64,000 bases of DNA, from the NCBI GenBank assembly GCA_947085185.1, contig CAMTVK010000003.1:964-64963 (forward strand), in the 5' to 3' direction. Shown piece by piece: positions 1 through 43,418 of this stretch. Every line of letters starts with the position of its first letter. The stretch's first letter is position 1. Source of the DNA: Candidatus Fraserbacteria bacterium. GTDB lineage: Bacteria > Bipolaricaulota > Bipolaricaulia > RBG-16-55-9 > DRXL01. A model generated the notes under the pieces. The model had not been told where the DNA came from. It worked only from the letters and a program-made list of their open reading frames with translations, and ran no database searches. A program made the position numbers and the translations under genes.

Positions 1-479
1 AAGTCACGGCTTTGTTGAATCTCTCCTTCTGTGAGACCCTCGTCTCGCAAGGCCTGGATAAGCCGAGGGTCAAGATCGTTGTAGGTTTCTAATGCTAAAC
101 GAACTGTATAGGCCTCCAGCGCAGCCGTTAGCCCGATTGCGTTATAGTGATTGAAAACCCGTTCTAAGACCTTCCTAGTCCTTGAGATAGCTGAGTATCG
201 ATCTCCATCTCGCTTATAGTCGTCCCTTATCTTCTTTATGGCTTTTGTAGCTTCTCTTGACAACTTCTTATCAACTTTTGCAAAGGCGTTAGCCACTTGT
301 TGTTCTTTTGCTAAAAGAGTAAGCCGCTTAGCACTATTTGAACTCCTTGCCACTCTATCAACTAGCATACACCCTGTGAGGGTCCCCACCGCGATTGCCC
401 CCATACCAACTCCGAACACTCTCAAAACATACCTCCGACTGAACCGAATTGTAACCGACTTCTCCGGTTTCTGCAACAT
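1..479 (-). CDS. Partial (C-terminus beyond window) hypothetical membrane-anchored protein; N-terminal TM helix (VFGVGMGAIAVGTLTGCMLV)
   Basis: Manual translation of minus strand frame from ATG (plus 477-479) shows no stop down to position 1; AGGTGA-like RBS upstream; not in ORF track because no stop inside window; AT-rich (~45% GC). Confidence 0.45.
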   Translation of the reverse strand, partial: MLQKPEKSVTIRFSRRYVLRVFGVGMGAIAVGTLTGCMLVDRVARSSNSAKRLTLLAKEQQVANAFAKVDKKLSREATKAIKKIRDDYKRDGDRYSAISRTRKVLERVFNHYNAIGLTAALEAYTVRLALETYNDLDPRLIQALRDEGLTEGEIQQSRD

Positions 480-551
480 TGGCGCTCACCTCTAAGTTCA
501 CAGTGTAGTTGCTATCACCCCCCTTGTCTATAAAGTAGTTTACACTCATGG

Positions 552-567
552 TGTAAATCACTTTACA
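552..567 (-). promoter_or_regulatory. CRP/FNR(NtcA)-type palindrome TGTAAATCACTTTACA (5-6-5), centred ~41 bp upstream of predicted TSS (-10 TATAGA at 527-532 minus)
   Basis: Perfect inverted repeat GTGTAAA-tcac-TTTACAC seen in sequence immediately downstream of Crp-family gene stop and upstream of minus-strand gene starting at 479; third half-site GTTTACAC at 538-545. Confidence 0.4.
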
Positions 568-575
568 CATCTCGG

Positions 576-1331
576 CTACACCGCTCCAGAACGAGAAAAT
601 TGCTCGATGCTTAGCGGGGGGGGGGCAAACTCCCGTAACTTCCCCTCATTGAGAATTACCAGCTCGCCCCGCCGATAGGCAATCAGCCCACGCTCCTGTA
701 ACACGCCCAGCTGCCGACACACCCATACCCGTGTGTTCCCTACCATATCAGCAAGCTTCTGTTCTGTCAGCGCTAAGTCGATCACAAGGCCTCGCTCACT
801 CTTGTAACCGTACTTCTCTCCCAACTCCATGAGCAGCTTCACCAACTTTTCACGTGTCCCAAGATAGGCTAGCTCAGCCAGGCGCACCCGCAGGGCTCCT
901 ATCTCATCAGTCAATCTCTTCTGCAGTGCGAGCGCAAGAGCCGGGAAATGCTTCATCAACCCCCGAAAGTCTTCGGAGCTCAGCCACCCTACCAAAGAAT
1001 CAGCCAACGCCTGCGCGGAGACGGTACTCGCACTCGCTTGTATAAAGCCTTCTTCTCCAAAGCAGTCGCCATCTTTAAGCAGTTTCACAACTTGCTTATA
1101 ACCACTTTTATTAAGATGTATTAATTGAGCTTTACCATAGCAAAGCATCCAGAGGCCGGAGATTATATCCCCTTGTGAAAAAATCATCTCACCATCATTG
1201 TACATTCTTGTGCGGATGAGAGAACAGAGCTGTGATCGTTCTTCTATGGAAAGAGAGGTGAAAAGGTCAATCTTGAGATCATCACACTTGATACGGGTTT
1301 TAACAGATATCTTTGGTAATCTGACTATCAT
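576..1331 (-). CDS. Crp/Fnr family transcriptional regulator (cNMP-binding domain + C-terminal HTH)
   Basis: Domain pattern cNMP-binding beta-roll then HTH (…RQLGVLQERGLIAYRRGELVI…); start at ATG 1331 with AGGGAG RBS (ORF-track start 1373 is TTG). Confidence 0.85.
   Translation of the reverse strand: MIVRLPKISVKTRIKCDDLKIDLFTSLSIEERSQLCSLIRTRMYNDGEMIFSQGDIISGLWMLCYGKAQLIHLNKSGYKQVVKLLKDGDCFGEEGFIQASASTVSAQALADSLVGWLSSEDFRGLMKHFPALALALQKRLTDEIGALRVRLAELAYLGTREKLVKLLMELGEKYGYKSERGLVIDLALTEQKLADMVGNTRVWVCRQLGVLQERGLIAYRRGELVILNEGKLREFAPPPLSIEQFSRSGAV
616..625. repeat. G10 homopolymer (C10 on coding strand, encodes PPP near C-terminus of Crp-family regulator)
   Basis: Seen directly: ttagc-GGGGGGGGGG-caaac. 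Confidence 0.9.
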
Positions 1332-2554: not shown

Positions 2555-2797
2555 ATGCTGAAAGCTTATGTGTTGTTAAAGTTCCATAAAGACCCAAGTC
2601 GGGCCTTCCCTCTTCAAGAGATCCTCAAAGAGCTGGAGCTCATCCAAGGGGTAAGGGAGGCGCACGCGCTCTTTGGGGACATAGACGGGATCGCACTGGT
2701 CGAAGCGCAGAACCCTAAATTATTAACGGCGATTGTGCAGCAGATCAGCAGTGTTCCTGGGATCGAGCGCACCGACACGAGGATCGTGGTGCCATAA
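2555..2797 (+). CDS. Small Lrp/AsnC-type ligand-binding (RAM) domain protein
   Basis: 80 aa; pattern resembles AsnC C-terminal domain (…HALFGDIDGIALVEA…); divergent from hypA. Confidence 0.55.
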   Translation: MLKAYVLLKFHKDPSRAFPLQEILKELELIQGVREAHALFGDIDGIALVEAQNPKLLTAIVQQISSVPGIERTDTRIVVP

Positions 2798-2807
2798 GGT
2801 TTCCAAG

Positions 2808-3257
2808 TCATGGGGCGACTTGGCGCTCGACTTGCCGGATGAGCCTGCCTAGGGCTTGGGCGACTGCGGGGCTAAGCTGCCCCCCAACGGTGTGGGGGTC
2901 TTCGACTTCGATCGCGAAGATTTTTATCTCTTTGGGGAAATTTAAGGTGAGCGCTTGGGCCGTGGCGATCAGCTCTGGTAGGCCTGCGTAATGGGGGGAC
3001 GGCGCTGCTACTGCGCCCAGATCAGCGGGACTCAGTTCATAGATCGTCCCTGGAGGAGTCTGTCCGGTCTTCACAGCGTCAATGATGATCGCTCGATCGT
3101 AGCCAACCAAAAGATCGAGCAAGGCCATTCCTGACAGAGAGCTTTCGACGACGTCGGCTTGATCTTTTAGTCTCTCTTTAAGGACGCGGGCGGCCAAAAT
3201 CCCCACAGCGTCGTCGCCGAGCAGTTCATTGCCCAGGCCAAGGATGAGCGTCTTCAC
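2808..3257 (-). CDS. [NiFe] hydrogenase maturation endopeptidase (HycI/FrhD/HyaD family)
   Basis: N-terminal LILGLGNELLGDDAVG motif and size 149 aa. Confidence 0.85.
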   Translation of the reverse strand: MKTLILGLGNELLGDDAVGILAARVLKERLKDQADVVESSLSGMALLDLLVGYDRAIIIDAVKTGQTPPGTIYELSPADLGAVAAPSPHYAGLPELIATAQALTLNFPKEIKIFAIEVEDPHTVGGQLSPAVAQALGRLIRQVERQVAP

Positions 3258-3264
3258 TGATCAC

Positions 3265-3732
3265 TTATGCTTTCATTTGCTCCGTCAGATAATTCTGAAT
3301 CCCGATCTGTTTGATCTGGCCGAGCTGCACTTCGAGCCAGTCTACGTGGTCTTCCTCGTCAGATAAAATAGACTCTAACAGCACCTTCGTCCCGTTATCC
3401 CCAACTTCGACGGCAAGCTCGGTGCCCTCATTATACGCTTTGACGGCCATATACTCGTGAGTGAGATCGTTCTCAAACTGTGCTTTCACGTCTGAACCGA
3501 TCTTGATCTCGTTGAGCTTGACGACGGGTATCCCCTCGAGAAAGAGAATGCGTTCGATCAGTTTCTCGGCGTGCTTCATCTCAGTGATGGCGTGCTTTTC
3601 AATCGCTTCATGGAGGCGCTCATAGCCCCAGTTGGCGCACATCTCTGCGTGTACTATATATTGATTGATCGCGGTCAACTCGTCTGCAAGCAACGCGTTT
3701 AAGCGCTCGATGATCTTCTTGTTCCCTTTCAT
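3265..3732 (-). CDS. bfr: Bacterioferritin (Bfr)
   Basis: MKGNKKIIERLNALLADELTAINQY…EMKHA…EEDH ferritin-like diiron motifs; internal ATG at 3732 with GGAGG RBS preferred over ORF-track start 3798. Confidence 0.85.
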   Translation of the reverse strand: MKGNKKIIERLNALLADELTAINQYIVHAEMCANWGYERLHEAIEKHAITEMKHAEKLIERILFLEGIPVVKLNEIKIGSDVKAQFENDLTHEYMAVKAYNEGTELAVEVGDNGTKVLLESILSDEEDHVDWLEVQLGQIKQIGIQNYLTEQMKA

Positions 3733-3761
3733 AGTTCCTCCATTGGCTTTCTTATGCAGTA

Positions 3762-3790
3762 AGTATAAGGCAAGCCCCCCTCTGTGACAA
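3762..3790 (-). promoter_or_regulatory. Candidate bfr promoter TTGTCA-N17-TATACT
   Basis: Hexamers seen on minus strand upstream of bfr RBS; imperfect palindrome CTTATGCAGTAAGTATAAG overlaps -10. Confidence 0.35.
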
Positions 3791-3824
3791 CCGTGCACCT
3801 GGGGAGCTTGCGACCTTGGCAGCT

Positions 3825-5288
3825 TCAGTCGCGTTGGATCTCACGCACAAGATTTCTGTGGCTATCGTACACCCGCACCAGTAAGGGCATCTGCCCTGGC
3901 AGGGCATGGGTCGCGCAGCCATGACAGGGATCGTACGCTCTGAAAGCGATCTCAACGAGATTGAGAATCCCGTCGTCTACTTTGCCGTTCTTGATACAAG
4001 CGCGCGCGGCTTTGTCTACGGACATCGCAATTCGGGCGGCGTTGTTCTGGGTAGCGACGATGAGATTCGCTTTGGTAATCAGGCCCTTCGCGTCGGTCTG
4101 ATAGTGATGAATGAGCGTCCCTCTGGGGGCTTCGACCACGCCGATGCCTTCTTTTGGTGTTGCCGTGGGGATCGTGCGCACGGTGGGACTGGTGATCTCC
4201 GGGTCGGTCGCGAGTTCTTGCATGCGCTCGGCAGCGTAGAGCAATTCGATGAGCCGTGCCCAGTGGTTGGCGAGCGTGTGATGGACGGGTTTGCCGCCGA
4301 GAGTCTTATAGAATTCTTTATACGCTTCTTGGGCTTTGGGGGTGGCCATGCCCTCGGCGGCGTTGAGTCTCGCCAATGGCGCTACGCTGTAGACTCCGCT
4401 CTCCGGGCCGTCTACGAAGCCCTTCCAGCCCACGTCTTTTAAGTAACAGAACTTTATATAGCTCCAGGGCTCGACGTGTTCGGCGACATGCTTGAGATAC
4501 TCTTGCGCTTTGAACTTCAGAAATTCTTTGCCGTTGGGATCGACGACGCGCAGCTGCCCATCGTAAAAATTCACTCTGTTGTGCTCGTCCACCAGGCCCA
4601 TATAGTACGTCTTATGGGTGTACGTCTCGGACGTGATCGTCTCGACGTACTGTTTGTTTTTGAGGACGACGTCATTGAATATTTGCAAGCTGAACAGCCC
4701 GAACTTCACGGCGCGCTCTGCTCCGGCGACGAACTTCTCTTGGTCTTCTTGAGTAAGAGCTTTAGAGATGCCGCCAGGCAGCCCGAAGACCGGATGAATG
4801 ACTTTTCCGCCAGCAAGCGAGATCAAGTCTCTGAGCTGCTTGCGCACCCCGATCACTTCTCGTCCGATCTCCAGACCGACTTTGCCCAAGACTCCTAAGA
4901 TATTGCGCTCGGCTTTGGGAGCCGTCGGCCCGACGACAAAATCGGGCCCGCCCAAGAAGAAGAAGTGCAGCGCATGGTCTTCAACATAAAATGTGCTGTA
5001 GACCAATTCGCGGATCTTCTTGGCTGCCGAGGGCGGCTCGACTTTGTAGAGATCGTCTAGGGCTTTCGTAGAGGCCATGTGATGTGCCGTGGGGCAGACC
5101 CCGCAGATTCGTGAAGTAATCTGGGGCATATCCTCGGCAGGACGACCGACGGCGAATTTCTCAAAACCGCGCAGCTCCGGCACTTGGAAGAACGCCCTCT
5201 CGACGTTGCCCTTCGCATCTAAGAAGATATCTATCTTGCCGTGGCCCTCGAGTCGGGTGATCGGGTCGATGATAATTTCTCTCGTCAT
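3825..5288 (-). CDS. mvhA: [NiFe] hydrogenase large subunit, group 3 (MvhA-like)
   Basis: RLEGHG, RICGVC (N-terminal Ni-Fe ligands), C-terminal DPCHGCATH followed by 26-aa cleavable extension. Confidence 0.9.
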   Translation of the reverse strand: MTREIIIDPITRLEGHGKIDIFLDAKGNVERAFFQVPELRGFEKFAVGRPAEDMPQITSRICGVCPTAHHMASTKALDDLYKVEPPSAAKKIRELVYSTFYVEDHALHFFFLGGPDFVVGPTAPKAERNILGVLGKVGLEIGREVIGVRKQLRDLISLAGGKVIHPVFGLPGGISKALTQEDQEKFVAGAERAVKFGLFSLQIFNDVVLKNKQYVETITSETYTHKTYYMGLVDEHNRVNFYDGQLRVVDPNGKEFLKFKAQEYLKHVAEHVEPWSYIKFCYLKDVGWKGFVDGPESGVYSVAPLARLNAAEGMATPKAQEAYKEFYKTLGGKPVHHTLANHWARLIELLYAAERMQELATDPEITSPTVRTIPTATPKEGIGVVEAPRGTLIHHYQTDAKGLITKANLIVATQNNAARIAMSVDKAARACIKNGKVDDGILNLVEIAFRAYDPCHGCATHALPGQMPLLVRVYDSHRNLVREIQRD

Positions 5289-43017: not shown

Positions 43018-43418
43018 CGCGGCCTCCTTTGTCGTCATACCTGCCTCAGTATAGCGAGCGATCCCCCCTGAGACAGTGATTCAAATTACCCATTGCGCAC
43101 GTTTCCCCTTGGCTTGAGCATAGCACAGCGTGCGGCCAAAGGCAAGCGGGCGTAATGGCAATTACAGTCTAAGAAAATCTCTAGGGGCTTTCGAGGTCTG
43201 GGGACAGCATCGAAGTGGGCGTTTGTCTGGAGGCAGGGTGCGCTCTGTCCAAATGGTTGGGCCCCATGCCGTGTGACAGGAGGGTCGAGGCTTTGTTCGC
43301 GGCAATCTGGCGGGCCAGATTGACGATGGCTTCGGATGGGGCCCAACTCACTGGTCATAGTATGGAGGGGGAACATGGAGAGGTCAATGAGCTCAATCAT
43401 GAGAAAATCTGAGATTCG

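Follow-up and report, generated by a model that had tools for sequence, protein, structure and literature searches.

[quoted passage not shown] In CRP, Arg180 reads the G at position 2 of the operator half-site and Glu181 reads the G:C pair at position 4; FNR, which is without that arginine, reads TTGA, and specificity swaps between FNR and CRP are established. CRP, FNR and NtcA canonically activate from an operator that is centred at about -41.5 and slightly overlaps the -35 element, and a near-consensus -35 element is unusual in class-II activated promoters. In the cyanobacterial regulator NtcA, the operator bases are read by Arg186, Val187, Thr190 and Arg191, and a Val187Glu substitution abolishes binding to the NtcA box (PMC11850224), which is centred at -41.5 (PMC3898017). 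The CRP-family protein TTHB099 of Thermus thermophilus selects the motif TGT(A/g)-N8-(T/c)ACA in vitro (PMC7662524).

The window, by which we mean the whole 64-kb stretch of DNA that was analysed, contains near its left end a 96-nt gap (480-575) between a Crp/Fnr-family gene (576-1331, minus strand) and a partial gene (1-479, minus strand). The regulator stop codon, TAG, occupies 576-578 and the next ATG lies at 479, in agreement with the gap described in the first-pass annotation of this DNA. That annotation had flagged a TGTA-N8-TACA palindrome of 5-6-5 architecture, and its 16-bp core (TGTAAATCACTTTACA) is indeed present as an exact match at 552-567, in the operator format of the Crp/Fnr type: a 16-bp inverted repeat whose 5-bp half-sites, TGTGA, TTTGA or TGTAA in type, stand 6 bp apart (here TGTAA-ATCACT-TTACA). 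In its extended form this palindrome, which we call site 1, is a perfect 7-4-7 repeat (GTGTAAA-tcac-TTTACAC, 551-568). A third TTTACAC half-site had also been pointed out 6 nt from it; the half-site exists (539-545) but is not a lone one, being half of a second full palindrome with one mismatch (TATAAAGTAGTTTACA, 529-544; 528-545 when extended). This site 2 lies 23 bp from site 1, centre to centre, and reads GTGTAAA-CTAC-TTTATAG on the minus strand, so that the minus-strand reading of the gap is GTGTAAA-gtga-TTTACAC, then ccatga, then GTGTAAA-ctac-TTTATAG.

Palindromes of this kind are rare in the window. Allowing at most one mismatch, TGTAA-N6-TTACA was matched three times across the 64 kb against 0.35 expected, a count that 0 of 100 shuffles attained. 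Two of these three near-matches fall in the 96-nt gap, and 552-567 is the sole perfect match in 64 kb; a chance origin of the gap palindromes is disfavoured. Within the window, the further sites that the first-pass annotation had suggested looking for in the genome amount to site 2; no other strong or convincing site was found beyond the gap in the 64-kb window, and hence no regulon is visible there. The only other match with one mismatch (CGTAATGGCAATTACA, 43151-43166) is situated within a 104-aa minus-strand ORF (43086-43400) and is probably a chance occurrence.

The gene at 576-1331 (minus strand) encodes a Crp/Fnr-family transcription regulator of 251 aa, identified through matches to Pfam and to solved structures. 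The Pfam families PF00027 (cNMP_binding, 3.4e-17), PF13545 (HTH_Crp_2, 3e-14) and PF00325 (1.1e-5) were all above their cutoffs, and among solved structures the best matches were a Crp/Fnr regulator (7ets) and NtcA (2xgx, E 3e-16), with Crp/Fnr proteins covering residues 23-231. The protein has the two parts of the superfamily, an N-terminal beta-barrel of the cNMP-binding type and a C-terminal winged helix-turn-helix of the Crp type. No other Crp-family ORF was found in the 64-kb window. The arginine by which CRP contacts cAMP is presumably replaced in the window protein, reading it against E. coli CRP, and the regulator is probably not a cAMP receptor. Nor is it FNR: the E. coli cluster involves C20, C23, C29 and a fourth cysteine, whereas the window protein has a single N-terminal cysteine (C16).

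Its recognition helix reads GNT-RVWVCR and aligns, as TRVWVCR, with TRVTVTR of NtcA. Both helices begin with Arg-Val and end with Arg, so that three of the four base-contacting residues of NtcA are identical here (R, V and R) and only Thr190 is exchanged, for Cys. The valine that stands in place of the glutamate of CRP is a documented discriminator (PMC11850224). The superfamily fold and the TGTA-N8-TACA operator are shared with NtcA as well, and the site is of the NtcA-like flavour that had been ascribed to it. The regulator nevertheless scores 56.4 bits against the NtcA equivalog model TIGR03697 (NCBIfam), for which the cutoff is 244.95, and it is therefore neither NtcA nor an orthologue of it. 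Unlike NtcA, moreover, it belongs to the phylum Bipolaricaulota, its tandem sites lie just 3' of its own gene, and in the 64-kb window a single, local candidate target was seen.

The comparison with E. coli CRP and FNR runs along similar lines. The inverted repeats share the 5-6-5 layout, the proximal site would occupy the class-II position, and among the relatives of the window protein TGTGA occurs with Arg-Glu and TTGA where the Glu follows a residue other than Arg. By contrast, the 23-bp spacing of the two sites is non-classical for a tandem CRP arrangement, and the window regulator is local, not global, as far as visible. TTHB099 has the same half-site type and provides a precedent for TGTA-type sites outside cyanobacteria, being otherwise unrelated in detail; we know of no conserved operator cassette 3' of a regulator gene described for it.

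A promoter scan of the gap found, on the minus strand, a -35-like hexamer (TAGACA, 525-530) and, 17 nt from it, a -10-like hexamer (TACACT, 502-507). A ribosome-binding site is apparent from the sequence (GAGGTGA, 486-492, minus strand), 6 nt before the ATG. TAGACA recurs in most related loci, with the variants TTGACA (L058), TAGAAG (L063), TAGACG (L061 and L088) and CAGACA (L089) in others, and the -10 element takes the forms TACACT, TACAAT, TACATT, TATAAT, TATACT, TATATT, TATAGT and TAAATT. Hexamers and the spacing of about 17 nt recur even where the spacer sequence and the downstream gene differ, and the ribosome-binding site is GGAGGTG(A/G) in relatives sharing the same downstream gene.

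From this geometry we infer a transcription start near 495, possibly off by about 2 nt, which would put the centre of site 2 at about -41.5 and that of site 1 at about -64.5. The promoter-proximal half of site 2 runs into the -35 hexamer, its edge overlapping the hexamer by 2 bp, and nothing overlaps the -10 element or the start. In this respect the promoter resembles those activated from the GTA-N8-TAC box at -41.5 in cyanobacteria, with one predicted site abutting the -35 element at about -41.5. The arrangement originally proposed has to be redrawn on two points. TATAGA, which had been taken for the -10 element, does occur on the minus strand (532-527), but it spans the point where site 2 meets the -35 hexamer, and relatives have CATAGA or CATTGA(CA) in its place, which suits a -35 and not a -10 element. 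Likewise, the flagged palindrome had been placed at the class-II position of about -41, whereas the conserved hexamers put it at about -64.5; relative to TAGACA-17-TACACT and its predicted start, the class-II position fits site 2.

The candidate target of this promoter is represented in the window by its 5' part (159 codons, 1-479, minus strand), which opens with the ATG at 479 and is cut short by the left end of the window. The gene, which the first-pass annotation had added although it was missing from the list of ORFs, is real: a full-length product from the same genome (P0033) was found, and in other loci the gene behind that of the regulator encodes an orthologue of 266-322 aa. Its description as a membrane protein was roughly right, in that the N-terminus carries a Tat-like SRR motif and an LTGC lipobox, and the C-terminus of full-length relatives is a hydrophobic hairpin that contains two CxxC motifs (CSAC...CYLC). 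The protein matched no Pfam or NCBIfam family, only four homologues sharing words with it were found, and its AlphaFold model is all-helical at low confidence (pLDDT 48). It is probably an exported, lipid-anchored, all-helical protein, as judged from these motifs and the model. P0033, P0034 and P0036 share a conserved CSAC...C(Y/L)xC, and small multi-pass membrane proteins are encoded next in relatives.

On the other side of the regulator gene lies a hydrogenase-maturation cluster. All genes near the regulator are on the minus strand, namely those for a Mrp/NUBPL-type P-loop ATPase (1370-2095), hypA (2097-2501), a HycI-type maturation protease (2808-3257) and the large subunit of a NiFe-hydrogenase (3825-5288), with a bacterioferritin-like gene (3265-3798) between the last two. 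The exception is a small AsnC-type ORF inside the cluster (2555-2797, plus strand), which encodes a stand-alone AsnC/Lrp ligand-binding-domain protein of 80 aa. The same arrangement of this ORF and the bacterioferritin-like gene is seen in L047.

We compared about 20 distinct related loci, nearly all from Bipolaricaulota, by sequence analysis of contigs that were metagenome-derived throughout. The closest relatives of the window are Candidatus Bipolaricaulota sequences, and regulator homologues with 50-67% identity occur in Bipolaricaulota assemblies. All of the loci except L087, which is decayed, share one layout. The regulator gene closes with a PP(P)-encoding poly-C tract and a short tail; then come two or three tandem palindromes (triple or tandem in L060-L065), TAGACA or a near variant and, some 17 nt further on, TAnnnT; a ribosome-binding site leads into the next gene. 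With the same exception, site 2 lies beside a -35-like hexamer in all 20 related loci, its half-site being clade-specific. In each locus the class-specific motif is essentially confined to the stretch just after the regulator stop codon, and autoregulatory sites upstream of the regulator gene were found in none.

The unit of regulator, sites and promoter persists where the upstream neighbours differ. These neighbours include hyp genes, HU and BamA/OmpH/FabZ. The downstream genes of other lineages encode radical-SAM/SPASM (PqqD-domain) maturases or a Tat-signal protein (L086:1102-2517, L091:3754-5536, L092:943-2367 and L085:4927-5265), and in L091 a 44-aa ORF precedes the maturase gene. A more distant orthologous pair is found at L089:4900-5000, with 47% identity in the regulator and 73% in the downstream protein; here two perfect GTGAAC-N3-GTTCAC palindromes, equivalent to TGTGA-N7-TCACA and one base wider than canonical, are followed by a perfect TATAAT.

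Within the window's clade (6 distinct loci), positions 516-575 are 86-91% conserved, which is the level of the segment coding for the helix-turn-helix, as compared with 30-60% for the downstream gene. If half-sites and hexamers are counted as motif, 8 of 46 motif columns are variable, as opposed to 17 of the remaining 43 (Fisher p = 0.03). The spacer of site 1 varies among orthologous loci (GTGA, GTAC or GCAC) while its half-sites are kept, and in the window's clade the spacer of site 2 (CTAC, CAAG or CGAG) and the linker vary as well. The annotated length of several regulator homologues is about 300 aa, and what they have in excess at the C-terminus (...MCKVIYTLSVNYFIDKGG...) is the palindrome region translated; it is therefore the intergenic DNA itself that is conserved.

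Across the loci, bases 2 and 4 of the half-site track the helix residues equivalent to CRP 180 and 181. Regulators with Arg-Val (R-V) helices are followed by GTGTAAA-N4-TTTACA(C/G) in the window, L002, L047, L049, L055, L056 and L091, as is the Q-V regulator of L053; R-E helices go with TGTGAA-type half-sites (L057, L085, L086 and L089), although L057 and L085 each retain one distal TTGAA half-site; and P/H-E or P-A helices go with ATTGAA-N4-TTCAA (L001, L058, L060-L065 and L092). In all, about 18 of 20 loci show this correspondence between the sites and the helix encoded next to them. The exceptions are L088, which combines an R-E helix with TTGAA sites and, given how closely it is related to the P-E loci, may reflect a recent change; L087, with its decayed site; and L089, with half-sites one base further apart. 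Two loci of a single metagenome, L086 (R-E) and L091 (R-V), both lie ahead of radical-SAM genes, and position 4 of the half-site distinguishes them in 4 of 4 half-sites. On a neighbour-joining tree L091's R-V protein (P0023) groups with P-E proteins, apart from the window's R-V clade, which indicates that the Glu/Val switch, together with matching operators, occurred at least twice. The independent evolutionary events are few, roughly three to four, each spanning several half-sites. P/H-E and R-E relatives also carry an FNR-like N-terminal C-x2-C-x3-5-C (alignment A1, in which window positions 1240-1331 represent the regulator N-terminus), of which the window's Arg-Val clade retains a single cysteine, and DNA specificity and likely sensing chemistry seem to have changed together.

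Because this pairing of helix and site fits the contact rules known from CRP, FNR and NtcA, it points to the neighbouring regulator as the binder, and on the strength of the comparison we consider it very probable that this protein binds the gap sites. That the downstream gene is the target, as had been proposed together with the binder, likewise draws comparative support from conserved half-sites, free spacers and helix tracking in about 20 loci. We put at roughly 0.78 the probability of the resulting main reading, in which the gap carries tandem operators through which the Crp/Fnr regulator encoded upstream controls, in class-II fashion, the sigma-70-type promoter of the next gene. Two tandem 16-bp operators would serve a dimeric regulator encoded immediately upstream on the same strand, and would abut a sigma-70-type promoter, TAGACA-17-TACACT, driving the lipoprotein gene. 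A dimer on site 2 (about -41.5) would contact RNA polymerase as a class-II activator, and a dimer on site 1 (about -64.5) would aid occupancy or polymerase recruitment. Arg-Val at the start of the recognition helix would set the preference for TGTAA over TGTGA or TTGAA, as in NtcA. This would be an ordinary kind of switch, which reveals no new mechanism.

The sign of the regulation is a separate matter, on which the predicted position of site 2 at -41.5 leads us to lean towards activation, as the first-pass annotation had suggested. The same protein could instead act as a repressor at the same sites, with two dimers beside or over the -35 hexamer blocking RNA polymerase, or blocking read-through from the regulator and hyp genes, and the good -35 element leaves room for repression or fine-tuning. 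Even unaided, the promoter hexamers look reasonably strong, TAGACA matching 5 of 6 positions with a 17-nt spacer and TATAAT in some relatives; tandem or triple sites such as those of L060-L065 are common in repressor operators; and no terminator stands between the regulator gene and the target. We still regard repression as unlikely, though by no means far-fetched, for the -10 element and the start are free of overlap, and a 2-bp overlap of the -35 element at about -41.5 is the canonical activating place, as given for NtcA in PMC3898017.

That some other Crp/Fnr paralogue, encoded elsewhere in the genome, binds the sites appears improbable. Our view is limited to 64 kb of the genome, several paralogues are frequent in bacteria, and the mismatch of helix and site in L088 would be in keeping with a different binder. 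A paralogue would, however, leave unexplained why the helix of the neighbour predicts the site at all, as it does across nearly all loci and through two independent Glu/Val switches, and why gene and sites stay together when both flanks change.

A further alternative turns on the end of the regulator gene, where a C10 homopolymer on the coding strand (616-625, minus strand; G10 on the plus strand) codes for the conserved PP(P), just ahead of the short tail at the C-terminus. In orthologous loci the tract is between C6 and C13 long, and the frame in which the tail is read changes with it; the close relatives L060, L061, L062 and L088 have C8, C10, C9 and C8. Three C-terminal tails result, namely 'PP(P)*', a 15-aa 'VSVE...' and a long read-through, and the 15-aa tail of the window arises from a 1-nt difference (GC-TAAGC vs GCGTAAGC). 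L047 and L056 can be aligned gap-free across the poly-C region, where they differ by a T/C substitution. The variation in length could be real slippage or assembly error.

In most clade relatives the regulator ORF reads past the poly-C tract, to 299-306 aa with the tail shown above, and the conservation of the gap might thus be that of a protein-coding extension from which the window is merely frameshifted. The long frame is open in L002, L047, L049 and L053, and variable columns show a mild excess at the third codon position (12 vs 7 and 6). The replacements, however, are radical exactly at the operator spacers (Y/K/E, V/A, M/L), all three frames occur among close relatives, and the extension contains a stop in L055, while the TAG of the window is conserved in 5 of 5 aligned clade relatives (L002, L047, L049, L053 and L055). 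The start of the downstream gene would, in addition, sit inside the extension, and most R-E and P/H-E ORFs stop before or at site 1 with the sites and the promoter still there. Coding across the operators was rejected on the grounds of frame inconsistency, radical spacer replacements and absence from other clades, and we consider it very improbable.

The least probable explanation is that the inverted repeats act as RNA, either terminating or stabilising the regulator mRNA or folding into a stem-loop at its 3' end, through a hairpin with 15-nt arms (531-545/551-565) or through small 7-bp hairpins. The repeats do lie right behind the stop codon, and a long imperfect hairpin is predicted, the 106-nt region folding at -29.8 kcal/mol, but this fold reaches a z-score of just -1.95 and is equalled by 8 of 200 shuffles, the long stem has 0 compensatory pairs and 6 of 16 pairs broken in the 6-locus alignment, the gap has no U-tract, terminator prediction or Rfam match and does not qualify as an intrinsic terminator or structured 3' RNA element, the arms of P-E relatives are 5 bp, A/T-rich and too weak for structure, and the changes follow the helix residues of the protein, which an RNA model does not predict. 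The long hairpin was rejected on the covariation counts, the weak z-score and the absence of an Rfam match; since the palindromes stay palindromic when they change, covariation alone leaves the small hairpins open.

Returning to the tandem operators and their class-II promoter, we also entertain a joint reading of the locus, which we hold to be improbable, in which the regulator gene, poly-C tract, operators and promoter form a portable cassette that has been repeatedly re-coded and in which the poly-C tract is phase-variable. Such a cassette may have been placed before unrelated targets (the lipoprotein, radical-SAM/SPASM peptide maturases and Tat-signal proteins), and the re-coding of helix and operators (Glu/Val at least twice, and Pro/Arg) may keep paralogous circuits insulated from one another. 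If this were true, slippage in the poly-C tract would decide whether the regulator ends in a short tail, in one of 15 aa, or in an extension whose translation runs through the regulator's own operator.

To our knowledge, Bipolaricaulota are known almost only from metagenome-derived genomes and essentially no transcription regulation has been described in them; a literature search on Bipolaricaulota and Crp returned nothing relevant. The main reading would give this phylum (OP1/Acetothermia) a concrete and testable assignment of regulator, operator and target. The related loci would, in addition, constitute a natural series of joint changes in two helix residues and two operator bases, arising at least two independent times, and such a series would be useful for checking the recognition code of the Crp/Fnr family and for predicting regulons from sequence.
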